A DNA stretch of 64,000 nt from Minisyncoccia bacterium (GTDB lineage: Bacteria; Patescibacteriota; Minisyncoccia; 2-02-FULL-40-12; IGHO2-01-FULL-4-A), in the NCBI GenBank assembly GCA_050015375.1, contig JBEKBN010000001.1, forward strand, positions 34,683 to 98,682, given 5' to 3'. Shown piece by piece: positions 3,068 to 53,371 of this stretch. The notes under the pieces are model-generated. The model made no database searches and was not told the origin of the DNA. It worked only from the letters and a program-made list of their open reading frames with translations. Position 1 is the stretch's first letter. Each line of letters opens with the position of its first letter. The translations under genes and the position numbers were made by a program.

Positions 3068-5230
3068 ATGCGACTATTTAAAATAAGCAAAAAAATCATT
3101 CCGATAATAGTCATCGTCGCGATGCTGATTTTGATTTTGCCCCAGCATCAAGCGAAGGCGGATCTTCCGGGCCTTGGTAGCATGGCAATAGGCGGCGTCG
3201 CGAGTTGGATAATGAACACAATCATCACAGGAGTGGGTACAGCGATTAGTTGGTCAGCTGGGCTTTTGGATTCTTTCATCGGCATGACTTCTTTTAACCC
3301 CCCATCCCAAGTTCAGGACAGTTGGAAAATGATTCGTGATTTCGTAAACATGTTTTTTATCCTGGTTCTGGTTATTATGGCATTCGGCACGATATTCGAT
3401 CTCCAAAAATATAACTATAAAACATTACTTTCGAGTTTTCTAATTGCTGCGATTTTTGTGAATTTTAGCTATGCAATCGGCATTTATATCTGGAACATCT
3501 CCAATGGCCTCGCTCATATTTTTTTGAGCACGATTCAGGGCGCAAGTAACCAAAGCGTGAGCGCAATCCTTGGCAACGGGCTAAGCTTGGGTCATTTTGT
3601 GACTTGGAACGGAGGCAATGCCGTAAATATCAGCGGCATTTCCAGCACGACAAGCATCGGGGCAGGTTCACCAATAATTACTTCCGTCTTCTTTATAGTA
3701 TTTTTAGTGATGGCTTTGATGGCAATCTTGTCGGCCGCTATTTTTGCTTTCATCAGAATCCCGTTCATCTGGTTCTTTCTTATCATTTCTCCAATCGCAT
3801 GGTTAAGTTATGCCCTGCCTAGCATGCGAAGCGCCGGTTGGAGCAAATGGTGGAAAAATTTTTTAGGCTGGTGTTTCTTTTTGCCGATTTATCTTTTTTT
3901 CCTGATGTTCGCCGTGATTTTTATTCATGTCAAGGACTCGAAAATTACCGAGATCGCAAAACAGCAGGCATTTTTGGCAGGCCCGCAGGCGCAATATGGC
4001 AACACTATGGCTGGGTTATTCCAGGCCATCGGTTTGAACGATATCTTCTTTTTTGTCGTAACGATTATTATCATGGTTTACGGATTGGCCATGGCGAAAA
4101 CGGTTGCCTTCGCGGGTGGTAGCCGAGCCATGAAAATTTTCGGTGGCATTGAGAACGGGGTCAAGCGCTACTTCCCGGGTTCGAGAACGGCACGAGGTAT
4201 ATACGCAGGTGCAAAGCAGGGATATGAGGCCAGAGTCGAAAGAGCCAAGACCGAGGGCGTTGGTTTTGGACGATTTAGAATTGGCGGTGAGAGTAAACTA
4301 AAAGGGACAATTGCCGAAATGGGCGGTTTTGGTGAAAGAGGGGCCAGAGAAAAACAGTTCGCCGCCGAAGTTAAAAAATTAAAAGAATCGATGGCAAATA
4401 TCGGCGATATCGAGCGTATCAGAAAAATGTCTCAGTCTGGCTCGGCTTACCAACAGCTTGCTGCAGCCGAAATACTCAGAGAAAGAAATGCGATGTCCGG
4501 CCAGGAGATGATTGATACGTACAAAAAATACCGAGAGAATAAGGCGTATGTTTCCGCGACTAGATTTATCAGTAGTGTAGACTTCAAGGATCTATCTGGG
4601 GAAGAAAGACGTGCCATCAACGCGAATCTGAATGTTACAGATCTTGAAGCTAAAAGAAAAATCGCCAAAGTCATGGCAGAAAAGGGCGACTTTAAGGCAC
4701 CACTGGGAACACCGGATAATATGAAAGTTCAAGCCGTCGCCGACCAGATTACTAAGGCCGCCGAATTGTTTGCTACGGCTGGGGACAGATTGGATATCTT
4801 GCAGAAAGCGAAGAAAGGTAACATCGAAGCAGCTGCTATAGCCACTGTTAATCTTAAGATACAGGATAAGGATGGGAATATTATTAAAACCACCGATGAC
4901 GCTATCACTAAGCTATTCATTGATTCTATCAGAAAAGCAAAGGTTGACGATATGATCGATCTTTCAAAGGAAACCCTCGCGAATGAGGAAGTAAAAAAGA
5001 TAATTCTGGATAAATTAGACAGAGATTTTCGGACAAAAAATGATTTTATGAATCGAGCAACTGATAAACAAAAAATGGCATTGGGTCTTCCTACTGGCCA
5101 ACAACCACCGCAGACATTCAATGTGGGCGAGGGAATTAGTAGCAATGTGGAACGAGACGGAAATCCGAAAGTAATTCTCGCTTCCGAAAATAATGTCATC
5201 GACCTCCGCAATAAATCTGGCGATGATTAA
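3068..5230 (+). CDS. polytopic membrane protein, VirB6/TrbL-like (putative T4SS channel component)
   Basis: 720 aa. N-terminal signal/TM, then about 6-7 hydrophobic helices in the first 300 aa, and a long charged C-terminal domain. Position upstream of VirB3-like/VirB4 genes. Confidence 0.4.
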   Translation: MRLFKISKKIIPIIVIVAMLILILPQHQAKADLPGLGSMAIGGVASWIMNTIITGVGTAISWSAGLLDSFIGMTSFNPPSQVQDSWKMIRDFVNMFFILVLVIMAFGTIFDLQKYNYKTLLSSFLIAAIFVNFSYAIGIYIWNISNGLAHIFLSTIQGASNQSVSAILGNGLSLGHFVTWNGGNAVNISGISSTTSIGAGSPIITSVFFIVFLVMALMAILSAAIFAFIRIPFIWFFLIISPIAWLSYALPSMRSAGWSKWWKNFLGWCFFLPIYLFFLMFAVIFIHVKDSKITEIAKQQAFLAGPQAQYGNTMAGLFQAIGLNDIFFFVVTIIIMVYGLAMAKTVAFAGGSRAMKIFGGIENGVKRYFPGSRTARGIYAGAKQGYEARVERAKTEGVGFGRFRIGGESKLKGTIAEMGGFGERGAREKQFAAEVKKLKESMANIGDIERIRKMSQSGSAYQQLAAAEILRERNAMSGQEMIDTYKKYRENKAYVSATRFISSVDFKDLSGEERRAINANLNVTDLEAKRKIAKVMAEKGDFKAPLGTPDNMKVQAVADQITKAAELFATAGDRLDILQKAKKGNIEAAAIATVNLKIQDKDGNIIKTTDDAITKLFIDSIRKAKVDDMIDLSKETLANEEVKKIILDKLDRDFRTKNDFMNRATDKQKMALGLPTGQQPPQTFNVGEGISSNVERDGNPKVILASENNVIDLRNKSGDD

Positions 5231-42891: not shown

Positions 42892-44028
42892 TCAACCGGC
42901 GAATGGTTTGCAAACCGCCCGCTTAAGGTCGTGATAATACAGATGAACTCTGGCCCTAAACGGCGCAGTCTTCTTAGGCTCCGCCAGCGGCACATTCTCG
43001 CAAAGCAGGATTCTCATGTCGGCATACTGCCGGTCAAGTTGGGCCGTCTTCTTTTCGGCGAGCATCTTTTGCCGGGCCAGTTGAACCGCTTTTTTGTCTG
43101 CTACTGCTTTTCGGGCTTCTTCGGACAAAATCGGAACTGCACGAGGTTTCGTTATCTCCATCCGCTTCCAGAATTTGATGATATTCCGTATTAACCAACG
43201 GATAGCGACAACGATAGCTCCGACAAAAACCGCCAGCGCCAAGCCGTAAATGGAGATGAGAATAAAGAGTGGTCCCATTTCACGAGGCGCTTCCTTGAAG
43301 TTGTTGGAAAAAAGGTCGCGAAAGCAGTCATTGAAGGGATGGAACAGGGGTTGAAAACGAAGCACTGGCCGCCATCTCTTGGGTGGCAGGAAAAAGTGTT
43401 CGGCGCTCCCGACATCGATGGCGTTAAACCAGAAGCCAGTTGCCAAAAGAACCAATACCGTCAACCAGCGCCAGAAAATCTTCCAGATGATCCACAAAAG
43501 CACAAGGGGCGGTTGAACAGTGTAGGCCGGGAAAATGCGCCGTCTCCGAAATTGGCATTGGTCTTTCGGTTTGGATTCAAACCAGAAATTAACCCACCTC
43601 CATTCCCAGCGCGGAGGCCGCTTGGCGAATAACGCGTCCGGAACCTCAACGGTCAGTTCGGCCTTCCCGAAATACGGCAACATCGGATCAAAAACCTTCA
43701 CTCCGGTCGTCCGGTCGAACAGATCGGTTGGATACCGGTCGTCTCTGCGGCGAATGTACCTTGCCCACGGATCAGCCCCGCCGTCGTTCCAAACAATTGA
43801 AGCATAGATTTTATTTGTTCCCGGTTCGCGGAGTTGGATAAATTCCTCCATCTGCTCGAAGGGCACTAAGAAACGGCGCTCTTCAAACCAAGAAGAGATG
43901 ACCACAAGCAGAACAAACACTCTCTGTGCTTTTTGGCTCTTAAGTAAATCAAGGTCCGCACGGTCAATACACCAGCGCACAACAATGGTGGCATCTTGTA
44001 TCTTGTTGTCGGTCATGAGCTTAAGCAT
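42892..44028 (-). CDS. hypothetical membrane protein (Trp/Arg-rich)
   Basis: 378 aa; several hydrophobic helices (LVLLWIIWKIFWRWLTVLVLLATGFWF, LFILISIYGLALAVFVGAIVVAI). Confidence 0.45.
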   Translation of the reverse strand: MLKLMTDNKIQDATIVVRWCIDRADLDLLKSQKAQRVFVLLVVISSWFEERRFLVPFEQMEEFIQLREPGTNKIYASIVWNDGGADPWARYIRRRDDRYPTDLFDRTTGVKVFDPMLPYFGKAELTVEVPDALFAKRPPRWEWRWVNFWFESKPKDQCQFRRRRIFPAYTVQPPLVLLWIIWKIFWRWLTVLVLLATGFWFNAIDVGSAEHFFLPPKRWRPVLRFQPLFHPFNDCFRDLFSNNFKEAPREMGPLFILISIYGLALAVFVGAIVVAIRWLIRNIIKFWKRMEITKPRAVPILSEEARKAVADKKAVQLARQKMLAEKKTAQLDRQYADMRILLCENVPLAEPKKTAPFRARVHLYYHDLKRAVCKPFAG

Positions 44029-44184
44029 AGATCTCCTTTCTGCGGTTTTGCCCGCTTTTCTAAAGTTTTAAGGTACTAAACCAAGTATTTCTATTCTATA
44101 TCAAACGGGACATATTGTCAAGAATGGCAATACTTGCTGAGTAAAACCAAAACGAGGCGGCGCCTCGTTAGGATATAATATTTG

Positions 44185-44257
44185 TCCGCCCGGAAGGACT
44201 TGAACCTTCAACATTCTCCTTAAGAGGGAGCTACTCTGCCAATTGAGTTACGGGCGG
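44185..44257 (-). tRNA. tRNA-Lys (anticodon CTT)
   Basis: Manual fold: acceptor CCGCCCG/CGGGCGG, U8, D-stem ACTC/GAGT, anticodon loop CTCTTAA, variable ATGTT, T-arm GAAGG-TTCAAGT-CCTTC, discriminator A. No encoded CCA. Confidence 0.75.
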
Positions 44258-44293
44258 ATTGTGCTTTTCATCTTATCAAAAATTTCTAAAAAA

Positions 44294-45400
44294 TCAAAGT
44301 CCGCTGGATTTCTGTTTTTTGATTTCAACAACGATGCCCGCGGAAGTGGTCTGGAGATAATTGCGGAAGGGAACGTAGAGTGAATCCAGAATTTGTTGTT
44401 TCCCCGGATCGGTCATGAGCTGGGGTTTGTAATTGATTGATTGGATAGGCAAAGCAGAAAATGTCAGGCCATTGGGAGTGAAATCGCCGGCGATGAGAAG
44501 CCCTTCCCGGGTTTCTTTTGAAAATGTCTGGTCAAAAAGAAAATTGCCAAGAGAATAAATTATCGGCGCGCCGTGATAAAGTTCGGCATCTTCAATGACA
44601 TGAGGATGACTGCCGATGACAATGTCGGCGCCAGCGTCAATCCAAACATGAGCGGCTTGGGCTTGGGCTGTCGTGTGGCCGGCTTTATATTCAACGCCCC
44701 AGTGAGGCATAACCAGAACCCGCATGGATGGGTCTTGTTTTGCTTTCTCGATTATCGGGACGAGCGCTTCGGCAATTTGGCCGGGTGCTAGCATATTCAC
44801 GCCGATAACTGTTAGCGATAATCCTAAGCCATGAAAAACGGCAATGCGGGAAATATCATTGCCGGCAGGTCCGCCAAATGTTTGGATGCCGGCAGAAGCT
44901 AAAACGGAACGGGTCGTGGCGATGCCTTCAGCTCCGGCGTTGTCGCTGTGATTATTAGCTTGGCTTACGCCATTGATGTGTAAATATGAAAGTGTGTTTG
45001 CAACGGCCGGCGGAAATCGAAATATCATAGTCGTCCGCGCGGAAACATTGTCCGGAATTGGTTTGTCGGTAATCGCTCCTTCCAGGTTAATGATCGCCGC
45101 GTCGTAACCCGAAAAGACCTGACTACCTAGATTCGAAAAAGCGTCATTGAAATCATTCCCGAAAGTGTGGTTTATCATCCGAGCGAACATGACATCGCCG
45201 CCGATAATGAAGCTGACGCTTGGTTCAGGGGTTGCCGTGGGAAGGGGAATAGCCGGACGGTGATCGGAAAGATCTATGGCGATGGTCGAAGTGTTTTGAT
45301 AATGATGGTTTATGAAATAAATGGCAAAAACAAAACAACATCCCAATAAAATCCCGACCAAACCACAAGCCACCATCTTTCGCGTGATGAGAAGCTTCAT
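44294..45400 (-). CDS. CapA/PGA_cap-family metallophosphatase (poly-gamma-glutamate synthesis-like)
   Basis: Signal/TM N-terminus. GGDVMFAR...DAAIINLEGAIT...VMPHWGVEY...HPHVIE motifs of CapA calcineurin-like phosphoesterases. Confidence 0.65.
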   Translation of the reverse strand: MKLLITRKMVACGLVGILLGCCFVFAIYFINHHYQNTSTIAIDLSDHRPAIPLPTATPEPSVSFIIGGDVMFARMINHTFGNDFNDAFSNLGSQVFSGYDAAIINLEGAITDKPIPDNVSARTTMIFRFPPAVANTLSYLHINGVSQANNHSDNAGAEGIATTRSVLASAGIQTFGGPAGNDISRIAVFHGLGLSLTVIGVNMLAPGQIAEALVPIIEKAKQDPSMRVLVMPHWGVEYKAGHTTAQAQAAHVWIDAGADIVIGSHPHVIEDAELYHGAPIIYSLGNFLFDQTFSKETREGLLIAGDFTPNGLTFSALPIQSINYKPQLMTDPGKQQILDSLYVPFRNYLQTTSAGIVVEIKKQKSSGL

Positions 45401-45405
45401 CTTTG

Positions 45406-45477
45406 CGCCCCCGCGAGGATTTGAACCCCGATCACTGGTTCCGAAGACCAGTACTCTATCCGTTGAGCTACAGGGGC
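45406..45477 (-). tRNA. tRNA-Arg (anticodon TCG)
   Basis: Acceptor GCCCCTG/CGGGGGC, D-arm GCTC-AACGGATA-GAGT, anticodon loop CTTCGGA, T-arm CGGGG-TTCAAAT-CCTCG, discriminator G. Confidence 0.7.
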
Positions 45478-45774
45478 CTCACACCTACTCACCTTCTGCA
45501 ACACAATTCTTTATTCTTCGTTTGAGTTGCAAATAGGCGTTACCTCTCAATTTTATACTAAACTCCCTGTGTTTGGCATCATCCTTTGAAAGATACGCTT
45601 CGTAATAAACCAAGACGAACGGTCTTCTTGTTCTTGTCGCTTCAACTAGCCCAGAATTGTGTTGCGTCAACCTTTTCCTTAGGTCGCTTGTATAACCAAA
45701 ATATAGCTCATCATCCCGTTTGCTCCTTAGAACGTATAAATAGTACATAGAAAAAGGTGAGTAGGTGTGAGGCC
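45475..45774. mobile_element. GIY-YIG gene cassette bounded by perfect 19-bp inverted repeats, abutting tRNA-Arg
   Basis: GGCCTCACACCTACTCACC at 45475-45493; its exact reverse complement at 45756-45774. The left repeat overlaps the first 3 nt of tRNA-Arg. The palindrome GAGGCCGGGGGCCTC follows the right repeat. Confidence 0.5.
45485..45748 (-). CDS. small GIY-YIG nuclease-domain protein
   Basis: MYYLYVLRSKRDDELYFGYTSDLRKRLTQHN...EATRTRRPFVLVYYE GIY-YIG motifs (YYLYVL, YFGYT, R, E, N). Confidence 0.75.
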   Translation of the reverse strand: MYYLYVLRSKRDDELYFGYTSDLRKRLTQHNSGLVEATRTRRPFVLVYYEAYLSKDDAKHREFSIKLRGNAYLQLKRRIKNCVAEGE

Positions 45775-45815
45775 GGGGGCCTCCAAACTTGACTGTTTTC
45801 CTTTTTCATTTTAAC

Positions 45816-45843
45816 AAAAAACTTGCCTCGCGACAAGTTTTTT
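45816..45843 (-). terminator. terminator after the 3D-domain gene
   Basis: AAAAAACTTG-CCTCGCGA-CAAGTTTTTT 10-bp stem, U-tracts on both strands. A second hairpin CACCCCCACACTC-TTGCAT-GAGTGTGGGGGT lies at 45853-45883. Confidence 0.6.
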
Positions 45844-45884
45844 GTGCCTCACCCCCACACTCTTGCATGAGTGTGGGGGTAAAC

Positions 45885-46469
45885 TTACGAACCGACAATT
45901 TGGATCTCAAGAGTGTGGCTGCCGAATTCAAGAGCGCTTTCGCGATCAGGGAACCAAATATCGATTTTTTGATTGTACCTTTTGTTCATTCTGTCCTCGA
46001 CAGTGAAAACCTTATCGCCGAAGTATTCGGGGATTTTGATTTTCGTTCCGAAGGGAAGGAAGTTAGCCGCGACCATACCGTCATAGACGTGAGCGCCGTC
46101 AGCGGCGATGAAAGGCGAAGCATCGGTCTGGTCGGGAGTCGAAGAATATCCCGTAACCGGAACTGTTAGCTCCTCCAAGATCGAATAAGAAGTTTTTTTC
46201 GTAGCGACAGGTTTAGCGTTTTTCACCGGGCTGTTCGTGGCCAAGAGGAAATTATCGCTGACAATGACCGAACCGGTTTGGGTGTCGGTCTGGGATTGAG
46301 CGACAACCGAATTGTTGGCGCCGATAAAAGCGACGCTGGAATCAGACTGGTTGCCGTTGCTGCCAAGTAAATTCATGGCATTGGCGCTTGAAGCTGCTAA
46401 TGAAAGCAAGGTGAAGGCCAAAAGACCGGCCGAGATCGCTTTATTGAATTTAATGTTGATTTTCATCAT
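45885..46469 (-). CDS. 3D-domain (MltA/YuiC-like) secreted cell-wall-binding protein
   Basis: Signal peptide MMKINIKFNKAISAGLLAFTLLSLAASSANA. C-terminal VTGYSS...GMVAANFLPFGTKIKIPEYFGDKVFTVEDRMNKRYNQKIDIW matches the 3D domain. Confidence 0.6.
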   Translation of the reverse strand: MMKINIKFNKAISAGLLAFTLLSLAASSANAMNLLGSNGNQSDSSVAFIGANNSVVAQSQTDTQTGSVIVSDNFLLATNSPVKNAKPVATKKTSYSILEELTVPVTGYSSTPDQTDASPFIAADGAHVYDGMVAANFLPFGTKIKIPEYFGDKVFTVEDRMNKRYNQKIDIWFPDRESALEFGSHTLEIQIVGS

Positions 46470-46481
46470 GTTTGTATTTAT

Positions 46482-46546
46482 CCCGTTAGAGGTAATCAAC
46501 CCTCGGGTTGATGCCGATTCGGATGTCCGAATCGGACCTCTAATGG
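46482..46546. repeat. CCCGTTAGA...TCTAACGGG-family palindromic element (copy e)
   Basis: CCCGTTAGAGGTAATCAACCCTCGGGTTGATGCCGATTCGGATGTCCGAATCGGACCTCTAATGGG; two internal hairpins. 12 nt upstream of the 3D-domain gene start. Confidence 0.6.
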
Positions 46547-46663
46547 GAATAAAAAACGGCCTATTAAGCCACTTTTTATGATAAAAGCCCTATTTGGGCT
46601 TCATGCTTCTAATACTATCACAGACCGTAATATTTGTCAACCCATGTTCGGGATTCTGTCAAC

Positions 46664-46740
46664 CCCGTTAGAAACAGCCCGCCCCAGGGCCTTTTGGGCG
46701 CGCTCACGTGCGGGCGTGGTTTCTAACGGGATCAAGTAAG
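46664..46740. repeat. CCCGTTAGA...TCTAACGGG-family palindromic element (copy f)
   Basis: CCCCGTTAGAAACAGCCCGCCCCAGGGCCTTTTGGGCGCGCTCACGTGCGGGCGTGGTTTCTAACGGG. Its CACGCCCGC...GCGCG...GGGCGGG core resembles copies a/b. Confidence 0.6.
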
Positions 46741-46750
46741 GGATTGCACG

Positions 46751-46780
46751 AAAAAACCGCCTCCAAAAAGGCGGTTTTTT
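46751..46780. terminator. bidirectional rho-independent terminator
   Basis: AAAAAACCGCC-TCCAAAAA-GGCGGTTTTTT. Confidence 0.65.
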
Positions 46781-46798
46781 CGCACAGACATAATTAAT

Positions 46799-47434
46799 TT
46801 AAAGCCGGATTCCAGTTCCGCCAATATTAATTCCCATTCCGCTTGTCGGCGGAGCTATTTCTTGAAAGGGCACCCCAAGAAAACCCGCGATTTGGTTAGC
46901 AATGGAGATGCTTTTGTCTTGACGAGTATTGATAAGCGGCGAGCCAAATGAAGCGATCGAGCCAATGCTTGCGCTCATATCTGGACGCATTCTACCCAAA
47001 GGCAACGCTGAACTATTTTTGAAAACTAGCACCGTTTGAATCATAAGCCGCGGCATTCTCGCATGAGTGGCCGACCGGCCGACTCCCGCACTTTCCCTCA
47101 CTAACTCCCACTCTTTTCTGCTTTCTACGTGAACTACATCGCCGATCTCATAAGTGAAGGTTTTGCCTCCAAAGATTCGCTTTTTTTGGTAAATAATTTT
47201 GTTGCCGGATTTGTTGAAGTCGACAACAATATAGCTGATCAAAAGCAATGTCAGTATCTCAACGATAGGGAATATGCACAAAATCAGGGCGCCTTGAGTG
47301 CCGGAGTGGCTGGAAAGAAAAACGAAAAACACAATGACCGAAGTCAAAACAATAACAACGATCATCGGCATATAACTGGAGAGTCCGCCGTCTTTGAGAA
47401 TTAATTCATCTGCGGTCTGGCTGATGATTTTCAT
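46799..47434 (-). CDS. hypothetical membrane protein
   Basis: 211 aa; two N-terminal TM helices, then a soluble domain. Confidence 0.4.
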   Translation of the reverse strand: MKIISQTADELILKDGGLSSYMPMIVVIVLTSVIVFFVFLSSHSGTQGALILCIFPIVEILTLLLISYIVVDFNKSGNKIIYQKKRIFGGKTFTYEIGDVVHVESRKEWELVRESAGVGRSATHARMPRLMIQTVLVFKNSSALPLGRMRPDMSASIGSIASFGSPLINTRQDKSISIANQIAGFLGVPFQEIAPPTSGMGINIGGTGIRL

Positions 47435-47449
47435 GGATATCGATAATTA

Positions 47450-48508
47450 TCAATTGGCATTCATCTCTACTGTCTGGGTGAAAATAACCTTGTTGAGGTA
47501 GCTGATCTGGATCGTTTTTTGGCCGGCCGTGTCGCTAATTTTAAAGAAACTGTTATGTTTATAGGGCGTGAACTCAAATGTTGTCGTTTGTCCAGGCGCG
47601 ATGGGTTCAACCAAACCTATTTGTTCGGGGACTTCTTTCGTAAACCCCAGTAAAACGGCTGTCAGTGTTGTATTTGAATCCGAGATCTTTGTACCTGTAT
47701 TTTTTACAGTAACGGTTATCTGCACATCTGGGCTGTTAACTATGGGGTGGGCCGGGTAGACGGTTGCGCTCGTTATGCTTAAATTAACAGAACCGTTTGG
47801 ATTGCTTGTGCTTTGTGGTGGATTGGTTTTGTTTTCCTCGTATGCGAGAGTCGCATCCATGTCAAGTTTCCAACTGCCTCCCTCGCTAATAAAAACCCAA
47901 TCAGCGGTAGTCGGAGCTCCGTTTGTTGCTGTGGTTGTTATGTTGGCAACAATGTTAGCGCCCGATTGAAACACGTTATTCACAGTGATTGACGTACCAG
48001 ACGGAACCAGTTGGCCACCAGAAGTGGAGATTTCATTAGCAGTTTTGGCAGAAACGTATTTAAGAAGAAGGTTGCCATTCCCACTTGAGATGTCCTGGCG
48101 CATGTCTGCGAGTATTGCTTTTACGGCATCTATATTGGTATTTGAGGCATTCGTGGTGGTTGAGGTGCTGGGAGTTGAAGTAACCGTCGGTGTTAAACTT
48201 GATGACGGAGAAACCGATGGTGAATTCGTGATATTTGTAACGGCGGCAATGGGTGATTTGTTGCCAGTTGATTTCCAGTAGAAATAGCCGGCGGCGGCAA
48301 TGATAATAACCAAGACCACGATTATTGAGATGACCAATCCCTTTTTTGATTTCTTTGGAGTATTAACGGTTGAGACATTACTAGACAAAGCTTCCGATAT
48401 TTCACTTTCCGGCCAGCCGGAATTCAAAAGCGCTTGCCTGATCTGTCCATCATTTATTCCCGACCGGCGGCTTTGCGCCACGTAGTCCAAAATTTGTTGA
48501 TTGGCCAT
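47450..48508 (-). CDS. membrane-anchored extracellular Ser/Thr/Asn-rich protein, hypothetical
   Basis: TM LVISIIVVLVIIIAAAGYFYW, then low-complexity PSVSPSSSLTPTVTSTPSTSTTTNASN and beta-rich domains. Confidence 0.45.
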   Translation of the reverse strand: MANQQILDYVAQSRRSGINDGQIRQALLNSGWPESEISEALSSNVSTVNTPKKSKKGLVISIIVVLVIIIAAAGYFYWKSTGNKSPIAAVTNITNSPSVSPSSSLTPTVTSTPSTSTTTNASNTNIDAVKAILADMRQDISSGNGNLLLKYVSAKTANEISTSGGQLVPSGTSITVNNVFQSGANIVANITTTATNGAPTTADWVFISEGGSWKLDMDATLAYEENKTNPPQSTSNPNGSVNLSITSATVYPAHPIVNSPDVQITVTVKNTGTKISDSNTTLTAVLLGFTKEVPEQIGLVEPIAPGQTTTFEFTPYKHNSFFKISDTAGQKTIQISYLNKVIFTQTVEMNAN

Positions 48509-48628
48509 ATCACAATTCTACCACCCTTTGAGGGGGGGGGCAACAATTGAGTTACGAACATCGAAACTTTGAGCGGGTAACGGGAGTCAAACCCGTATCT
48601 GATTCTTGGCAAGAACCCATAATAATCG

Positions 48629-49309
48629 TTATACGATACCCGCGTTTTTTTCAAATGAAACTTCTTGATATAATTCTATCCAACGCAATATTTTTTGCAA
48701 TAATTTCTTATTATGGACAATAACATTACATACTCCGTTTGATAGTCTTTTTGTCGGATGCCTGCCAACAATAGTAACCGACTTTTTGAATTGTTGCAAC
48801 GGTATAGCAACCAACTTAGACCAAAATCTTTTTTGTATTTCATCGTTTAAATCCGGGTATAAGAGAAGCCGTAAAAATATTTCTTCTCTTGGGATGCTGA
48901 CTGCTTCATGTAGAAATCTGTAAAATATCCTGATCATTCCCGGGTCAGAATTACTGAGACCAACGCTACCATGTTTCAAAATTCTAGCTCCTTCGCCCCA
49001 ATAAAGCATTACGCCGGAGATAAAAAGCGGATCAAATTTCTTGATCTTAAATTCAAGTTCTGCTTCTTTTCTGTATTCCTCATGAATTAAAGCCCATTTC
49101 TTTTTTGTAGCCGCAACCATTAACCTGAGTTTCTTTGGCGAAGAAAAGGAAGCTTCACTCGCGAGTTTGTTTTTTATCTCTTGCGACCAAGATAAATCTT
49201 TAAACCAACCACAAAGCGTGGCAGTAGGAATTCCTAGTTTTCGGGAGATTTCCTTATAGCTTTTATTTTTTCTTCTCAATTCAAGAGCTTTTTCCTTGTC
49301 GTTTCTCAT
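48629..49309 (-). CDS. HTH + LAGLIDADG-like (degenerate, single-motif) homing-endonuclease-like protein
   Basis: N-terminal HTH ...YKEISRKLGIPTATLCGWFKD; LYWGEGAR segment in LAGLIDADG position; paralogue of the 49659 gene. AT-rich; flanks tRNA genes. Confidence 0.4.
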   Translation of the reverse strand: MRNDKEKALELRRKNKSYKEISRKLGIPTATLCGWFKDLSWSQEIKNKLASEASFSSPKKLRLMVAATKKKWALIHEEYRKEAELEFKIKKFDPLFISGVMLYWGEGARILKHGSVGLSNSDPGMIRIFYRFLHEAVSIPREEIFLRLLLYPDLNDEIQKRFWSKLVAIPLQQFKKSVTIVGRHPTKRLSNGVCNVIVHNKKLLQKILRWIELYQEVSFEKNAGIV

Positions 49310-49507
49310 GTTTGTGGATAAGTTATCAAACTGCCTGTTGATAGTATAGATTTATTATACAACGGGGTTCAAAAAATGAAAGTCCGTTTTGTGGATAAGC
49401 CAAAGAGAAAGTGCATAAACGAAAAACCGTCAATTTAATGACGGTTTTTCCGATGTGCCGTGGGTCAAAATTAAAACAGGCAAAAGCTTGTTTTAATTCT
49501 TGATTTG

Positions 49508-49578
49508 TGCCGCGGAGGTGAATCGGACACCTTTCTAATGCTCTTCAGGCATCTGCTTTACCATTAAGCTACCGCGGC
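49508..49578 (-). tRNA. tRNA-Phe (anticodon GAA), unusual T-loop TCCGATT
   Basis: Acceptor GCCGCGG/CCGCGGC, D-arm GCTT-AATGGTA-AAGC, anticodon loop CTGAAGA, T-arm AGGTG-TCCGATT-CACCT (C at position 55), discriminator A. Confidence 0.55.
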
Positions 49579-49596
49579 AATAATTTTGTCGAACTG

Positions 49597-49668
49597 TGGG
49601 CCCAGTAGGAATCGAACCTACTACCTCTTCAATGTCAATGAAGCGTTCTGCCAGTGAACTATGAGCCC
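49597..49668 (-). tRNA. tRNA-Val (anticodon GAC)
   Basis: Acceptor GGGCTCA/TGGGCCC, D-arm GTTC-ACTGGCA-GAAC, anticodon loop TTGACAT, T-arm GTAGG-TTCGATT-CCTAC, discriminator A. Confidence 0.75.
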
Positions 49669-50360
49669 ATACCTATCACTTTGTCATGGTACATTTCACC
49701 AAGATACAATAATTTTCTTTGAATCGCAACATGGCCACATGTGATGACACAGACACCTTTATAGTCAGGATAAGTTTTCCGGCCGGCCGTTCTTTGATCC
49801 ATTGCGACGCCCGTGAAATTTGCAAGCGGAATCTTGAGGTTTTTTGACCAATATCTTTTCATTTTTTCAGGATTTTGATCGGCTCGAAGGTGGAGGGAGC
49901 ATTTAAAATCACAAATGGGGACACCATACATTTTCTTTAATGCGGTTATAAAGAATTTTAGTATTTTTAAATCGGAATTTCCCATACCGGTTCCCACGCC
50001 TTTTTTCATTCCTTCGCCGAGGTATAGAAAAGATAACGCTAATTCAAGTATATTTAAATTAGAAACGTCTATTTCTTTTAAAGAATCCTCCGCCTCTTTC
50101 TTGGCTTTTTCTAATCTGGCTTTTTTCTGGGCGTTATGCCAAAGAACCGCTTGCATCCTTGCTGTATCAAGTCCTTTTTGCGAATTTGCCGCTAATATTT
50201 CCTTCTGTTTCTTAGTTAGATTTATCTTTCTAAACCAGCCACTCAGAGTCGAACGAGGGATACCAAACTCGTGTTCAACTTTTGTCATAGATATACCTTG
50301 CCGTCGCATCGCTAAAGCGGATTCTTTCGACTTGTACCACCTTGATATCATAATATACAT
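49659..50360 (-). CDS. HTH + LAGLIDADG-like homing-endonuclease-like protein (paralogue of 48629 gene)
   Basis: HTH ...VEHEFGIPRSTLSGWFRK; ILELALSFLYLGEGMKKG LAGLIDADG-like block; RYWSKNLKIPLANF ~ RFWSKLVAIPLQQF in the paralogue. 3' end overlaps the first 7-10 nt of tRNA-Val. Confidence 0.4.
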   Translation of the reverse strand: MYIMISRWYKSKESALAMRRQGISMTKVEHEFGIPRSTLSGWFRKINLTKKQKEILAANSQKGLDTARMQAVLWHNAQKKARLEKAKKEAEDSLKEIDVSNLNILELALSFLYLGEGMKKGVGTGMGNSDLKILKFFITALKKMYGVPICDFKCSLHLRADQNPEKMKRYWSKNLKIPLANFTGVAMDQRTAGRKTYPDYKGVCVITCGHVAIQRKLLYLGEMYHDKVIGMGS

Positions 50361-50476
50361 TATAACATCGGTAATACGGATGAACAATCTAGTTATCAAC
50401 AAAAAACAGCAAACCGCTGTTGTGTAGAAAACAAAACTAATAACTAGTTTCGAGCTAATAATAATTTTGTGCCTAT

Positions 50477-50728
50477 TTATTCGGCAACTAAGACCGATCC
50501 TTCTTTGGCTTTTTGGGGGAGTTCAACTGCAACCTCTTCGCCTTTTTTGCCGCCTTTCACATTTTCATGGTTGACCTGGATTGAATTGATCGTGGCATCA
50601 AATTCATCTTCCCCGTGACGGACTTTCACGGCGTCACCAATTTTAAGAGGCGCCGACAATCTCACAACCGCCACTTTTATCTTATCGTACCAATGGATCA
50701 CTATGCCGATTTCTTTTTCTTTGGCCAT
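50477..50728 (-). CDS. small hypothetical protein
   Basis: 83 aa from internal ATG (MAKEKEIGIVIHWYDKIKVAVVRLSAPLKIGDAVKV...). The longer track ORF would run through tRNA-Leu. Confidence 0.35.
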   Translation of the reverse strand: MAKEKEIGIVIHWYDKIKVAVVRLSAPLKIGDAVKVRHGEDEFDATINSIQVNHENVKGGKKGEEVAVELPQKAKEGSVLVAE

Positions 50729-50764
50729 GATTATACGTTGAACAATTTTTTGATAAATCGACCT

Positions 50765-50849
50765 GTGCGCGGGAGAGGATTCGAACCTCCATGGACTTAC
50801 GTCCGCCACCACCTCAAGATGGTGCGTCTAACCAGTTTCGCCACCCGCG
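50765..50849 (-). tRNA. tRNA-Leu (anticodon GAG), long variable arm
   Basis: Acceptor GCGCGGG/CCCGCGC, long D-loop, anticodon arm CCATC-TTGAGGT-GGTGG, variable arm CGGACGTAAGTCCATG, T-arm GAGG-TTCGAAT-CCTC, discriminator A. Confidence 0.7.
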
Positions 50850-50855
50850 CATTAA

Positions 50856-51578
50856 CTATACTGAACTTGCAATATTATGTAAATTATCAACCCGTAAAGC
50901 AGAATATATTTTTTTAAACTTTCTTTCAAGCCTTGGCCCTGTTGCGTTGTGGTAAACCCTCTCAATTAAAATTTTAGCTTCTTTTTTTGCGTATTTCAAT
51001 TGATATGCACGACATGTCTTATTGTAGTAATCTATATGTCCGTGAACATTGCATAATGCCATTGTTCTGTCTCTGAGCCATTTTAAATGATTTAAACTTG
51101 CAGACACAAACGATAGATAGAACAAGAAACTCGAAGCCCAGCGCTTATCCCAATAAGAATAAAAACTTCCGTCACCGTCCAAACAACCCCTGAGAAAATC
51201 GAAGTAATACTTATCCGGGATATCCAATTTTCCTAATATTTTTGATTTCGCTGGCATTAAACCAATCGAAAGTAAGAAATTATAGAAATTTTTATCTGTG
51301 AATTGCACGAAGTAATATTTTCGCTCCGGAGCAAAGCCGCTTTTCTTTAGGCACACCTTGCTATTTATTCCAAGGCATTTTTTAAATGTATCAATTTGGT
51401 CAATATCTTTTGACACAAAAACCATTGCCCTTCCATTTTTTGACAAGTTGCCATCTGTCGCAATTAGGCCTATAGCATACGCAAGTTTAGCTGACCATTC
51501 AGTAGATGTTCGTTTGAGCATCTTCATGCCATAATTATAACTCAAGCGGAAGCGTATAGCAATGCTCCCATTTAACAA
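50856..51578 (-). CDS. double-motif LAGLIDADG homing endonuclease
   Basis: Motif 1 LAYAIGLIATDGNL; motif 2 FLRGCLDGDGSF. 240 aa; ends 7 nt from the tRNA-Leu 5' end; AT-rich. Confidence 0.75.
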   Translation of the reverse strand: MLNGSIAIRFRLSYNYGMKMLKRTSTEWSAKLAYAIGLIATDGNLSKNGRAMVFVSKDIDQIDTFKKCLGINSKVCLKKSGFAPERKYYFVQFTDKNFYNFLLSIGLMPAKSKILGKLDIPDKYYFDFLRGCLDGDGSFYSYWDKRWASSFLFYLSFVSASLNHLKWLRDRTMALCNVHGHIDYYNKTCRAYQLKYAKKEAKILIERVYHNATGPRLERKFKKIYSALRVDNLHNIASSV

Positions 51579-51593
51579 CCTAACTGGGTAACT

Positions 51594-52013
51594 TTATTTT
51601 TCGGCTTCTTGAGAAGAGGGTTCGGATTCGGTCCGTTGGCCAACAGATGGTTCAATGATCTTCACTTTCCGGCGGGTTTCGCGGGCGGACTTGGTGCGAA
51701 GATAATAGAGTTTGGCTTGTCGGACTTTGGAAGTTTTAGCTATCTCAAATTTTTCAATTGTCGGCAGATGCAACGGAAAAACCCGCTCCACTCCAATGCC
51801 GTTAGAAACTTTCCGGACAGTGATGGTTGCATTGGGTCCGGAGCCGTGTTTGCGAGCGATGACCATGCCCTCAAAAACCTGAACCCTGGTTTTGGCGCCC
51901 TCCTTGATGCGCTGGTGGACTTTCAGTGTGACTCCGGGCCGGATATCCGAAAACGCGCTTCCTTTCGGATCGGTGGCGGTTGTTTTCGTATTGAATGTTT
52001 GAATCTGATCCAT
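51594..52013 (-). CDS. rplS: 50S ribosomal protein L19
   Basis: [91 protein letters not shown]; ATG 52013 checked. Confidence 0.85.
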
Positions 52014-52056
52014 TATTTTTCTCCAATTAAATCGGTCTTTGCATCTTATCCTAAAA

Positions 52057-52866
52057 TCAATTTTTTGGCAAATTGTCCAAAAAGTTTTGTAATTCCGGCG
52101 GCAGGTCGGTTTCAAGGGTCAATGCTTCGCCAGATGGCGTTCCCCCACTACCAACATTTTGGTGTGGGGGTAAAGTGAATGATAGTTTTTGAGCGTGAAG
52201 AAAAAGCCGTCCAAGTTCGGGCGGACAGCCTTCGCTCGATTTCGAGCTTCGGCGAGGCGAAGACAAACTGGAACCATAAAGTTGATCACCGACAATCGGG
52301 TGGCCGATGGATTTCAAGTGGATTCTGATTTGATGGGTGCGCCCTGTTAGAGGTCTTACCTCTAACAGGGTAAAGCCGGTAAACTCTTTTTCAACTTTAT
52401 ATTCGGTGACCGCTGATTTTTCTTTTAAGTCCCTTTTACCGTGAATTTGGGTGGTTTGTTTGGTGCCAATCTTGCCGATAGATGTTTCGATTCTGCCGGA
52501 TTCTTTTTTCATTTGGCCGACGACTAGAGCAATATATGTTTTCTTGATCTTGTGTTCTTGAAATTCTTTTTTCAGATAATCAAAAGCCGGCTGGGTTTTG
52601 GCAATTATCATCAAACCTGACGTCTCTTTATCTAGACGATGAACGATTCCTGGCCGCAAATCAACCCATTGGCCGAGCATCTCGCCATGTTTATCGGTGA
52701 CATTTTTGATCTCCGGATATTTTTCCAAAACCCAACTGACCACGCTTTCCGAGGTATCCGTCCGATTGACCGGATGCGTCAAAAGCCCCGATGGTTTATT
52801 GATGACCATTAAGTCATCATCCTCGTAAACAATTGAAATGTGAGATAATTCTGGTATCATGTTCAT
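52057..52866 (-). CDS. RluA-family 23S rRNA pseudouridine synthase (RluD-like)
   Basis: [16 protein letters not shown] (catalytic Asp) and [18 protein letters not shown] motifs. The conserved LLEVRPLTG is encoded by a perfect 12-bp palindrome. Confidence 0.85.
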
Positions 52867-53220
52867 AGTTCATATTTTGGAGGATTTTATGATCATTTCA
52901 CCTTGTAACGGATTAAGAAAATGCTGGCGACATCCCGGCGGATGCGCTCGGATTGTTATTGATCCGCGGGATGAATACGCCACTCGTATGCGAAATAAAG
53001 CAAGGCGACGTCGTTTATGGCATATCGTTTTGGAACAATATCGAATTTGTAAAAAGTGGCGCTTAAATCCAATCCCGCCAGAACTTCATTTGCAAGTTGT
53101 TCTTCTTTTGGAACAAGTTCAAATGGAAACGGAACAGAGATTTTTAGAGAAGGAACAAGGAAAAAGTAATGGTTAAAATTAACTCATCCTGACCAGTTTA
53201 TCTGGTCTTTTTCATTTGTG

Positions 53221-53292
53221 TGGGCAGTGTAGGAATCGGACCTACGGCCTTTTGTGTGTAAAACAAACGTTCTGCCACTGAACTAACTGCCC
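53221..53292 (-). tRNA. tRNA-Val (anticodon TAC), T-loop TCCGATT
   Basis: Acceptor GGGCAGT/ACTGCCC, D-arm GTTC-AGTGGCA-GAAC, anticodon loop TTTACAC, T-arm GTAGG-TCCGATT-CCTAC, discriminator A. Confidence 0.7.
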
Positions 53293-53297
53293 AATTG

Positions 53298-53371
53298 TGC
53301 GCGTGCCTGGACTCGAACCAGGGACCCCGTCTTTATAAGAGACGTGCTCTAACCGACTGAGCTACACGCGC
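53298..53371 (-). tRNA. tRNA-Ile (anticodon TAT; reads AUA)
   Basis: Acceptor GCGCGTG/CACGCGC, D-arm GCTC-AGTCGGTTA-GAGC (Ile-like), anticodon arm CGTCT-CTTATAA-AGACG, T-arm CCTGG-TTCGAGT-CCAGG, discriminator A. Confidence 0.6.

Follow-up and report, generated by a model that had tools for sequence, protein, structure and literature searches.

Why should a gene for a small GIY-YIG nuclease, enclosed by perfect inverted repeats, be located immediately in front of an intact tRNA gene in an ultra-small bacterium? We addressed this question for a locus from a member of the Minisyncoccia, which we studied within a continuous stretch of 64 kb of DNA (referred to here as the window) and in comparison with related loci (designated by L numbers). 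A preliminary description of the locus had envisaged either a small mobile cassette or homing element inserted at a tRNA gene or, alternatively, a clamp that loops out the gene.

The 19-mer GGCCTCACACCTACTCACC is present at exactly two sites in the 64-kb window, 45475-45493 on the forward strand and 45756-45774 on the reverse strand, and these two sites remain the only ones when three mismatches are permitted; none is expected by chance (100 shuffles). The previously noticed perfect 19-bp inverted repeats are consequently present at their reported positions, but they are longer than had been stated, since the repeat is perfect over 21 nt, with a spacing of 258 nt between its arms (Table 1). 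The GIY-YIG reading frame bracketed by these arms is likewise real but comprises 87 instead of 88 amino acids. Read in the direction of the gene, 5 nt separate the upstream arm from the ATG start codon (7 nt, and not 8 nt, for its 19-mer version), and the downstream arm spans the last three codons, the TAG stop codon (45485-45487) and a further 10 nt past the stop. With these 21-nt perfect arms, the window cassette possesses terminal inverted repeats. At its outer end, the downstream arm shares 3 nt with tRNA-Arg (nt 1-3 of the tRNA); this overlap had been seen before and agrees with the ARAGORN and Rfam tRNA predictions (45405-45477, minus strand). Also confirmed is the palindrome next to the right repeat, GAGGCCGGGGGCCTC (45769-45783), which is composed of the outer end of the upstream arm and the direct-repeat copy GAGGCCCCCG. 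A second perfect inverted repeat, 13 nt in length, falls within the GIY-YIG reading frame, and the outer and the inner stem are both found in the predicted centroid folds of the DNA (z = -3.9) and of the RNA (z = -5.6). The inner stem is conserved at 11-14 nt in 10 of 10 members of the subfamily to which the window copy belongs; it is confined to this subfamily, and we therefore do not regard it as a family-wide feature.

Table 1. Positions of the cassette, its repeats and the adjacent features in the window.
Feature	Position	Strand	Basis
tRNA-Arg(TCG), intact	45405..45477	-	ARAGORN; Rfam tRNA, 64.3 bits
Right flanking direct repeat copy GAGGCCCCTG, tRNA-Arg -3 to +7	45471..45480	-	sequence
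Downstream arm of the 21-nt perfect inverted repeat	45475..45495	.	repeat search and DNA search
87-aa single-domain GIY-YIG nuclease gene	45485..45748	-	ORF; Pfam PF01541, E=1.3e-15, residues 1-70
Inner 13-nt stem, 3' arm, codons K-N-C-V-A	45498..45510	.	repeat search; 2 nt from outer arm
Promoter-like site (second), within the GIY-YIG ORF	45550..45579	-	promoter scan, consensus match only
Inner 13-nt stem, 5' arm, codons of the catalytic Q-H-N-S motif	45653..45665	.	repeat search
Upstream arm of the 21-nt inverted repeat	45754..45774	.	repeat search, DNA search, compensatory changes
Left flanking direct repeat copy GAGGCCCCCG	45774..45783	-	sequence
Promoter-like site TTGTCG-17-TAAAAT (with TG)	45808..45836	-	promoter scan, consensus match only
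A/T-run hairpin ACAAAAAACTTG...CAAGTTTTTTGT	45814..45845	.	repeat search; overlaps -35 region
Gene-less hairpin ACCCCCACACTC-ATGCAA-GAGTGTGGGGGT with family end motif	45851..45880	.	repeat search

On the far side of the cassette, the left flanking copy represents a displaced duplicate of the 5' end of tRNA-Arg, in which nt 1-7 of the tRNA appear as GCCCCCG, with one mismatch. The longest exact string common to both flanking copies is GAGGCCCC, and the flanking repeat of the window can accordingly be written as GAGGCCCC(C/T)G. A promoter-like site precedes the left copy by about 25 nt; judged from its match to the consensus, it is probably the original promoter of tRNA-Arg, which would now read through the cassette. 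As the cassette is placed between this site and the tRNA, both are predicted to be co-transcribed. The duplication of the first 7 nt of the tRNA together with 3 nt of its leader would thereby leave the tRNA intact and co-transcribed with the nuclease gene. The second promoter-like site, inside the reading frame, could transcribe tRNA-Arg independently. The A/T-run hairpin looks like a terminator of the upstream gene, and a terminator scan made no call at this position. An Rfam gathering scan of the window returned tRNAs only and no introns. A group I or group II intron at tRNA-Arg was rejected, both for the missing ribozyme core and because the insert is located upstream of tRNA nt 1.

The protein consists of a single GIY-YIG domain, with no DNA-binding or other extra domain; its homologues have 83-92 amino acids, and their catalytic residues Y16, G18, R26, H30, N31 and E62 are invariant. 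Its amino acid sequence suggests a place among the small stand-alone GIY-YIG proteins, a group that includes Ssn and UPF0213, at about equal closeness to both: 50.9 bits were obtained with the family profile for the SsnA ortholog of N. gonorrhoeae, and 53.6 bits with the A1 profile for the UPF0213 protein BH0048. Pairwise identity to SsnA amounts to 37.8% over 74 amino acids, and the closest solved structures by sequence are of the UPF0213/YhbQ type (PDB 1zg2, E=1.9e-13; 1ywl, 8.9e-10). In the alignment, UPF0213 proteins possess one extra residue in the GKGAKYT segment that the window family lacks. No transposase was matched in NCBIfam or PHROGs; the GIY-YIG nuclease gene is the sole reading frame of the cassette, and none of the known transposase classes (DDE, HUH, serine, tyrosine) is encoded by it. 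A phage or defence origin was considered and dropped, as the 87-aa protein had no match in PHROGs and tblastn searches of phage and plasmid records retrieved no small GIY-YIG genes other than distant ones (<46% identity).

Free-standing GIY-YIG homing endonuclease genes resemble the cassette in the location of a nuclease gene beside tRNA genes and in their behaviour as selfish inserts; segB of phage T4, for instance, resides in a tRNA gene cluster. The Seg and I-TevI proteins comprise more than 200 amino acids and carry a separate DNA-binding domain, and their genes lack bracketing repeats. With 87 amino acids, no second domain and a TIGR01453 score of 14.9 bits against a cutoff of 56, the window protein is not of the I-TevI/Seg type. 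The suggestion of a homing element does not hold in its classical form, given the size of the protein, its missing DNA-binding domain and the absence of an Rfam intron.

To view the locus in a wider context, we used a sample of 164 homologous genes from CPR/Patescibacteria (ultra-small bacteria) and a few other phyla. An inverted-repeat bracket is present in 134 of the 164 homologous reading frames (82%), with a median arm length of 20 nt, and each of these brackets beats all 30 shuffles. The outer ends of the arms are conserved across many CPR lineages (CCCCCACAC / CCCTCAC ... G-run); their inner parts vary and stay complementary. Two copies exist in single MAGs or loci (L006/L010, L019, L020, L037, L065, L068), with those of L020 arranged in tandem. 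There are also gene-less miniature copies with the same ends, which cluster beside GIY-YIG genes and are in some cases nested; perfect 4-nt repeats flank 9 of 18 such copies, compared with 3.3% in controls.

The cassettes are found preferentially at genes for stable RNAs. A tRNA gene on the same strand starts between -10 and +28 nt from the stop codon in 33 of 165 copies (about 20%), where approximately 0.6% are expected from tRNA density. Seventeen anticodons are represented among the tRNAs of these 33 copies; of 36 tRNA-adjacent copies, 33 are co-oriented with the tRNA, and adjacency depends on the end type (17/27 for CCCTCAC versus 3/63 for CCCCACAC). Other cassettes reside in hairpin loops of RNase P RNA (L161 and L026, and L023 in the P3 loop) or within 23S rRNA (L027, L061, L162), all of them in the same orientation as the host RNA gene. 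Abutting direct repeats with a length of 4 nt or more are present at 43% of the cassettes but only at 2.2% of the controls, with a mode of 4 nt at non-tRNA sites and of 7 nt at tRNAs. These repeats are variable in length (4-11 nt) and overlap the G-run of the arm; at the tRNA-adjacent copies, the first 7-11 nt of the tRNA are repeated on the far side of the cassette. At L030, the left repeat copy is found at the expected start of tRNA-Val, directly after tRNA-Ile; the window contains the same pair of tRNA genes, 4 nt apart and with no cassette between them. At the level of the family, the 134 loci, the 17 tRNA species and the duplicated pieces of the target bear out the previously suggested small mobile cassette at a tRNA gene.

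Could the stem be a device that operates on RNA only? It would then loop out the mRNA, folding or RNase III would free the tRNA precursor, translation would be low due to a hidden start region, and the stem would have no role in DNA movement. The insertion of the cassette between a promoter-like site and tRNA-Arg, the retention of the clamp in the RNA fold and the orientation shared with the adjacent tRNAs are all in keeping with such a device. Furthermore, cassettes in RNase P RNA and 23S rRNA must be tolerated structurally or be cut from the RNA, and GIY-YIG reading frames in rRNA genes of CPR bacteria are carried by insertions other than group I/II introns (PMC11270868). Complementarity of the arms is indeed maintained by compensatory changes, since both sides have changed in 9 of 34 stem pairs among nine subfamily members (7 of 21 pairs in the outer stem and 2 in the inner stem). 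Moreover, 96% of the subfamily stem cells are paired; sliding the partner lowers this value to about 40%, and none of 500 shuffles reaches 96%. These data, and the need for a clamp inside RNase P RNA and 23S rRNA, speak for the looping-out alternative of the preliminary description. Nevertheless, we consider an exclusive RNA-level function unlikely. The mismatches in 2622 arm pairs comprise 33 of the GU type and 27 of the AC type; this lack of a sense-strand G-U excess fits a pairing that is kept at the DNA level, and all changed pair cells of the subfamily but one stay Watson-Crick. The position of the arms relative to ATG and stop differs widely among the family loci and hence follows no fixed translational logic. 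In addition, the gene-less copies with their 4-nt flanks and the target duplications are signatures of DNA insertion for which an RNA device does not account, and SsnA neither bound nor cut RNA in published experiments (PMC11893778). An RNA-level role can coexist with a selfish cassette and does not have to take its place as an explanation; the mobile-cassette and clamp readings are compatible and not mutually exclusive.

Alternatively, the gene might encode a domesticated host nuclease with a hairpin in cis, as proposed for SsnA and NTS of Neisseria, which would cut incoming or replicating ssDNA, modulate recombination or transformation, and be immobile now. The Ssn precedent is in line with this possibility, and strong purifying selection acts on the protein (dN/dS 0.07-0.09, with dS saturated), which is a member of a very large and conserved family (4877 cluster representatives, E<=1e-10). 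Selection of this strength and such deep conservation would fit a host-beneficial gene equally well. Neither the cassette nor its 19-mer recurs elsewhere in the 64-kb window, and the only syntenic relative, L081, has the same cassette arrangement. The cassette block of the window and of L081 is 98.4% identical, and their flanks are about 70-88% identical. As other blocks with 100% identity occur in this comparison, which presents itself as a recombination mosaic, the high identity of the cassette is not specific, and we dropped it as evidence for recent homing. Within the window, the 19-mer is found only here, and the orthologous locus in L081 is arranged identically, a constellation that had been put forward as an argument against mobility; it is too narrow a test because mobility is visible only across relatives.

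Across these relatives, a domesticated nuclease becomes improbable. In eight loci of the subfamily the cassette adjoins tRNA-Glu(CTC/TTC); the window and L081 have theirs at tRNA-Arg, and that of L171 is not beside any tRNA. The gene neighbourhoods differ, and the left repeat matches in each case the tRNA adjacent to it. This shift in site, with the closest relatives of the window copy at tRNA-Glu or at no tRNA, speaks for mobility, and the tandem duplication in L020, the nested or adjacent gene-less copies and the target duplications suggest ongoing insertion. Dispersed hairpins on which a host nuclease might act are not present in the window; the end motif CCCCACAC occurs there only 3 times, at about chance level, and we accordingly also rejected a dispersed REP-like repeat in this genome. 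Relatives with a cassette-free tRNA-Arg flank were not recovered: our searches for the window locus yielded no empty orthologous site or excision product, no metagenome contig matched in an exact scan for the tRNA-Arg core, and the CapA homologues (50-61% identity; P0135, P0136, P0137, P0126) are non-syntenic and lack an upstream tRNA-Arg. A chance repeat or an assembly artefact beside an ordinary hypothetical gene, for which nothing speaks except the origin of the sequence from a metagenome-assembled genome, is highly improbable in view of the zero matches expected by chance, an independent JGI contig with the identical arrangement and the same architecture at 134 further loci from many assemblies.

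We conclude, with a probability of roughly 0.55, that the locus harbours one member of a widespread group of IS-like, miniature selfish cassettes that are adapted to stable-RNA genes. A mechanism along the following lines can be envisioned. In single-stranded form, the arms would fold into one long hairpin (21 bp plus the 13-bp inner stem) with the gene in its loop; in the window, this cassette would sit between the promoter and the body of tRNA-Arg. By analogy with the Ssn nucleases, for which recognition of the NTS/SRM hairpins has been demonstrated by experiment, the ssDNA hairpin would be recognised by the nuclease. Cleavage beside G-rich hairpin ends, such as those of tRNA acceptor-stem DNA or of RNase P and 23S helices, followed by host repair, could then spread the cassette, and the window copy itself may be mobile at present. 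In the transcript, the stem would have a second task, as it would pack the insert into a self-contained stem-loop so that the host stable RNA could still fold and be processed. To our knowledge, GIY-YIG enzymes only hydrolyse DNA, and we know of no strand-transfer activity among them; the variable target duplication of 4-11 nt is a difficulty for a model of GIY-YIG-driven insertion. More tentatively, and with the odds somewhat against it, the cassettes may form a previously unrecognised class of prokaryotic transposable elements in which a GIY-YIG (Ssn-like) single-strand nuclease of about 87 amino acids is the sole protein and hairpin-paired ends guide the enzyme. The G-rich stems of stable RNAs (5' strand of the tRNA acceptor, P3/P12 of RNase P RNA, 23S helices) would serve as landing sites, each insertion would duplicate 4-11 nt of the target, with the host RNA still functional, and the gene-less copies would be MITE-like offshoots of the element.

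With IS200/IS605, REP/RAYT and MITEs such as the Correia elements, the cassettes share hairpin ends, very small size, gene-less derivatives and flanking cognate palindromes. Unlike IS200/IS605 and REP/RAYT, which depend on an HUH (Y1) transposase, they encode a GIY-YIG hydrolase; furthermore, the single-strand, hairpin-guided IS200/IS605 makes no target duplication, whereas 4-11 nt are duplicated at the cassettes. A long stem that encloses an insert in or beside a stable-RNA gene is also known from the RNase III-processed intervening sequences (IVSs) of 23S rRNA, and an IVS-like insert would be tolerated because the stem closes it off. Classical IVSs are devoid of reading frames or contain other ones.

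Among described systems, the Ssn nucleases and the GIY-YIG-encoding non-intron insertions in rRNA genes of CPR bacteria come closest. The Ssn proteins (SsnA of Neisseria; cd10448) are nucleases specific for ssDNA and guided by hairpins, and their genes have hairpins of their own on both sides; this gene-hairpin architecture was termed identical to that of an IS by the authors of that study (Chenal et al., Nat Commun 2025, PMC11893778). In common with Ssn, the cassettes have a single-domain GIY-YIG protein of about 90 amino acids with no DNA-binding domain, and a hairpin-forming sequence on both sides of the gene. They differ from Ssn, which has a complete local hairpin on each side, in that the arms of one hairpin are split across the gene, about 260 nt apart, and in that no dispersed repeat population is present in the window. 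The published SRM pattern HGTCWY..YYVSBRH..WNVSBRG..RNCYNB has no match in the window and none in the flanks of the 164 loci; as a control, it matched 7 times in the 1.4-kb ssnA locus of N. gonorrhoeae. The Ssn study (PMC11893778) makes no mention of a targeting of tRNA, RNase P RNA or 23S rRNA genes or of target duplications at the flanks. The insertion sequences in CPR rRNA genes (J Bacteriol 2024, PMC11270868) agree with the cassettes in host group and protein superfamily, and L027, L061 and L162 are such insertions in 23S rRNA; the window copy is different in that it resides at the 5' end of a tRNA, outside of rRNA genes. No inverted repeats, hairpins, or association with tRNA or RNase P were reported for them (PMC11270868).

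The cassettes connect the Ssn/hairpin systems with the GIY-YIG insertions of CPR rRNA genes, for which there had been no explanation, and with the frequent small GIY-YIG genes beside tRNAs. Should the 87-aa nuclease mobilise its own cassette, GIY-YIG enzymes would join the DDE, HUH, serine and tyrosine enzymes as catalysts of bacterial insertion elements, and few known autonomous mobile elements would be smaller than the cassette. A way for selfish DNA to survive in tiny genomes is suggested thereby, namely within the transcription units of stable RNAs, self-folded out of the way. The many pairs of arms and enzymes are a possible source of new sequence-specific ssDNA nucleases. In practical terms, the cassettes account for oversized genes for RNase P RNA and 23S rRNA in CPR assemblies, which can lead annotation astray.

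Further hairpins accompany these elements. The gene-less hairpin in the window that carries the family end motif is located 77 nt upstream of the cassette and 4 nt past the stop codon of the upstream 204-aa gene, and GC-rich CCCCGC...GCGGGG hairpins that resemble the NTS core are present in the CPR relatives L043, L044, L068 and L077.

The cassette next to tRNA-Arg(TCG), a small GIY-YIG nuclease gene between two inverted-repeat arms, is genuine and belongs to a family that is both large and coherent. With a probability that we place slightly above one half (about 0.55), it is an IS-like, hairpin-bracketed cassette specialized for stable-RNA genes that sits here at the 5' edge of tRNA-Arg. An insulating role of its stem at the RNA level probably acts alongside this IS-like role.

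The 19-bp repeat pair on which the preliminary description was built occurs in the window only at 45475-45493 (+) and 45756-45774 (-), with 0 expected by chance; perfect complementarity is longer and runs to 21 nt. The arms do enclose a GIY-YIG ORF, of 87 rather than 88 aa, whose residues 1-70 match the GIY-YIG catalytic domain (E=1.3e-15). The bracket is real, although its limits had been drawn differently, from 8 nt upstream of the ATG to the stop codon: 5 nt separate the upstream arm from the ATG, and the downstream arm takes in the final 3 codons along with the stop and reaches 10 nt past it. The last 3 bases of this arm are the first 3 of the tRNA, as had been noticed at the outset. The palindrome reported beside one of the repeats is accounted for by the two flanking direct-repeat copies. 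The interval from the upstream 204-aa gene to the cassette contains two hairpins; the one at 45851-45880 has neither a gene nor a 4-nt flanking repeat.

Features of the cassette at tRNA-Arg(TCG) and its surroundings, in window coordinates
Feature	Position	Remark
tRNA-Arg(TCG)	45405-45477	minus strand, strand of the ORF
GIY-YIG ORF	45485-45748	minus strand
Outer arms, perfect	45475-45495 / 45754-45774	
Inner inverted repeat, perfect, 13 nt	45498-45510 / 45653-45665	within the ORF; absent from the preliminary description
Gene-less hairpin ACCCCCACACTC...GAGTGTGGGGGT with family end motif	45851-45880	absent from the preliminary description
A-run/T-run hairpin	45814-45845	overlaps the -35 of the promoter-like site
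Promoter-like site TTGTCG-17-TAAAAT	45836-45808	upstream of the cassette
Left flanking direct-repeat copy GAGGCCCCCG	45783-45774	
Right flanking direct-repeat copy GAGGCCCCTG	45480-45471	

The CapA protein encoded beside the cassette is 100% identical to one from a Minisyncoccia (Parcubacteria/CPR) MAG. Homologues of the nuclease belong in their overwhelming majority to CPR/Patescibacteria, and the family counts 4877 cluster representatives at E<=1e-10. Our locus set consisted of 80 loci from species-representative genomes, 80 metagenomic loci and several found by exact-protein look-up. An inverted repeat links the region just 5' of the ATG with the stop region in 134 of the 164 evaluable ORFs (82%); the arms have a median length of 20 nt, and each of the 134 scores above all its shuffles. 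The outer ends are kept across very different lineages (ACCCCCACAC.., GCCCCTCAC.., CCCCCCACCAC.., CCCGCACAC..), always with a C-run/G-run terminus, and the inner arm parts, into which the start and stop codons often fall, are locus-specific in sequence with their complementarity retained.

This pairing was followed in the subfamily to which the window cassette belongs (protein identity 70-78%, C-terminus KNCVAExE). Among nine aligned subfamily cassettes, 96% of the cells are paired, versus about 40% in slid controls, and both-sided changes affect 9 of the 34 stem pairs (7 in the outer and 2 in the inner stem), a result reached by 0 of 500 shuffles. The second-last codon (GGT/GCT/GCA/ACA/ACT) is one such compensated position, with the matching change in the arm 5' of the ATG. 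The inner stem, in which codons of the catalytic QHNS motif are paired with the KNCVA codons over 11-14 nt, is present in 10 of 10 subfamily members and was not found in the wider family; its constraint at the nucleotide level probably explains the unusually invariant C-terminus. The catalytic residues are invariant, and dN/dS is 0.07-0.09, with synonymous sites saturated. The closest solved structures are those of the UPF0213 proteins BH0048 and EF2693; NCBIfam and PHROGs gave no specific match.

As an alternative to a mobile cassette, the repeats had been proposed to form a 19-bp clamp that loops out the gene. Mismatches in 2622 arm pairs are balanced (33 of G-T type, 27 of A-C type), and changed pairs in the subfamily are all Watson-Crick except one; there is therefore no sign of selection on pairing in the sense transcript alone. 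This favors a pairing of the arms as DNA, or else in both strands. On the other hand, a cassette within RNase P RNA or 23S rRNA has to be either closed off or removed once transcribed. The outer and inner stems are predicted in both DNA and RNA folds. Since the promoter-like site upstream of the window cassette has normal spacing to the left repeat copy, in which the tRNA start is displaced, transcription of tRNA-Arg probably now runs through the cassette. The minimum-energy RNA fold shows the 3' acceptor strand of the tRNA paired to the left repeat copy, which we regard as a curiosity and not as a finding.

A preference for stable-RNA genes is evident from the sites that the cassettes occupy. 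Same-strand tRNAs, representing 17 anticodons, start -10 to +28 nt from the stop codon in 33 of 165 ORFs (20%); the tRNA density of the loci would lead one to expect about 0.6%, and opposite-strand tRNAs are found at this distance from only 3 ORFs. The type of the conserved outer ends tracks the site: 17 of 27 cassettes of the CCCTCAC type, to which the window belongs, are tRNA-adjacent, versus 3 of 63 of the CCCCACAC type. Rfam and BLAST place further copies within RNase P RNA (L161 in a P12-type hairpin loop, L026 in another hairpin loop, L023 in the P3 loop) and within 23S rRNA (L027, L061, L162), all co-oriented with the host RNA gene. Taken with the tRNA-adjacent copies, about a quarter of all copies thus lie in or against stable-RNA genes. 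The window's subfamily is found at tRNA-Glu(CTC or TTC) in 8 loci with differing neighbor genes; the window and its syntenic relative L081 have it at tRNA-Arg(TCG), and the L171 copy is at no tRNA. The subfamily's left repeat matches the local tRNA in each case, and the outermost base of the left arm changes (C to G) together with tRNA position 2.

Several minor observations concern these sites. A 9-kb segment of the window (44184-53371) contains eight tRNA genes, each on the minus strand, with a cassette at tRNA-Arg only; tRNA-Gly(GCC) at 48571-48643 is an ARAGORN call missing from the Rfam gathering-scan list. The cassette-bearing 23S rRNA gene of L061 also holds a separate group I intron (4177-4432; Rfam 73.3 bits). 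The native P12-type helix of the RNase P RNA in L026 (2782-2836) and L161 (318-627) ends in GTGTGGGGGTAAGGGTGAAA, the G-rich string of the cassette right end plus its common TAAx flank; in L026 this helix pairs through G-U, whereas pairing of the cassette arms is Watson-Crick. The element may have had its ancestral home in RNase P RNA.

Signatures of insertion accompany the cassettes. At tRNAs, the initial 7-11 nt of the tRNA are repeated directly 5' of the left arm (GGGGCGGTTAG, GGGCCGGTAG, GGCGCCA and others). Family-wide, abutting direct repeats of at least 4 nt are found at 43% of cassettes versus 2.2% of controls, with a length mode of 7 nt at tRNAs and 4 nt at non-tRNA sites, and GG directly precedes the left repeat copy in 25 of 54 cases (background 7.6%). 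The 580 kb of loci further contain 18 distinct gene-less elements or hairpins with cassette ends (20 arm pairs; loops of 3-250 nt), 9 of them with perfect 4-nt flanking repeats (3.3% in controls) and over half less than 100 nt from a GIY-YIG gene. In L020 (1852-2423), 5' of tRNA-Ala(TGC), the whole cassette is perfectly duplicated in tandem, yielding two identical 89-aa ORFs, each with its own arms and an 11-nt tRNA 5' piece. In L030 a cassette lies between tRNA-Ile(TAT) and tRNA-Val(TAC), with the left repeat copy at the usual tRNA-Val start; these two genes are 4 nt apart in the window, without a cassette. The insertion chemistry and the current mobility of the cassette are putative.

Two further arrangements were also seen. 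A gene-less element in L029 (2231-2500) starts exactly at the RNase P RNA 3' end (P1 strand CTTGCCCC); after it come a second, incomplete copy and then the GIY-YIG ORF, a nested or tandem order. Copies adjacent to tRNA-Trp, tRNA-Cys or tRNA-Tyr in L043, L044, L068 (two copies) and L077 lack the usual arms; the ORF is instead preceded by a long but incomplete second copy of that tRNA, in which a GC-rich hairpin (CCCCGC..GCGGGG) similar to the Neisseria NTS core takes the place of one segment.

At the window locus itself, an empty orthologous site was looked for and not found, and the 64-kb window holds no second copy. Relatives with an intact, different 5' flank of tRNA-Arg had been envisaged; in L081, the sole syntenic relative, the arrangement is identical. 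Between the stop codon of the upstream gene and the start of CapA, the window and L081 share a block of 98.4% identity, with far more diverged flanks, but we rejected it as specific evidence for homing because other blocks in the same comparison reach 100%; it reflects general mosaic recombination. Across 44000-46900 of the window, blocks of 98-100% identity (e.g., 46484-46603, 44289-44468, 45428-45847) alternate with blocks of 35-75%, a mosaic suggestive of frequent homologous recombination in the population.

Relatives in kind of the cassette are the hairpin-guided single-strand elements IS200/IS605 and REP/RAYT, the RNase III-processed 23S intervening sequences and free-standing GIY-YIG homing genes such as T4 segB; each of them misses at least one defining feature. 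GIY-YIG ORFs in CPR rRNA genes have been reported within insertions that are introns of neither group I nor group II, in a survey silent on repeats, hairpins, tRNA and RNase P (PMC11270868), and our cassettes in CPR stable-RNA genes agree with these insertions. Among described systems the Ssn family comes closest; its members are single-domain GIY-YIG nucleases of 94 aa, which bind the NTS/SRM hairpin repeat in ssDNA and cut adjacent to it, with no activity on dsDNA or RNA; their genes are flanked by NTS/SRM hairpins, a layout likened to IS by the authors (PMC11893778). The cassette differs in that one hairpin is split around the gene. As Ssn cleavage persists with the hairpin halves on separate strands (PMC11893778), a split hairpin would, by analogy, be a plausible substrate of the nuclease. 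The published SRM pattern had 0 matches in the window and all 164 loci, and 7 in the Neisseria control. The literature searched yielded no description of the bracketed architecture, the tRNA/RNase P targeting or the gene-less derivatives. The N. gonorrhoeae SsnA ortholog is an unannotated 94-aa ORF amid ten dRS3/NTS copies (L176; NZ_CP119140.1, 1881687-1883108), against which the CPR family profile scores 50.9 bits, about equal to the 53.6 bits of the A1 profile against UPF0213, so that the scores do not decide for Ssn membership. The record NZ_CP119140.1, a 2.17-Mb N. gonorrhoeae chromosome, is filed as a plasmid in PLSDB.
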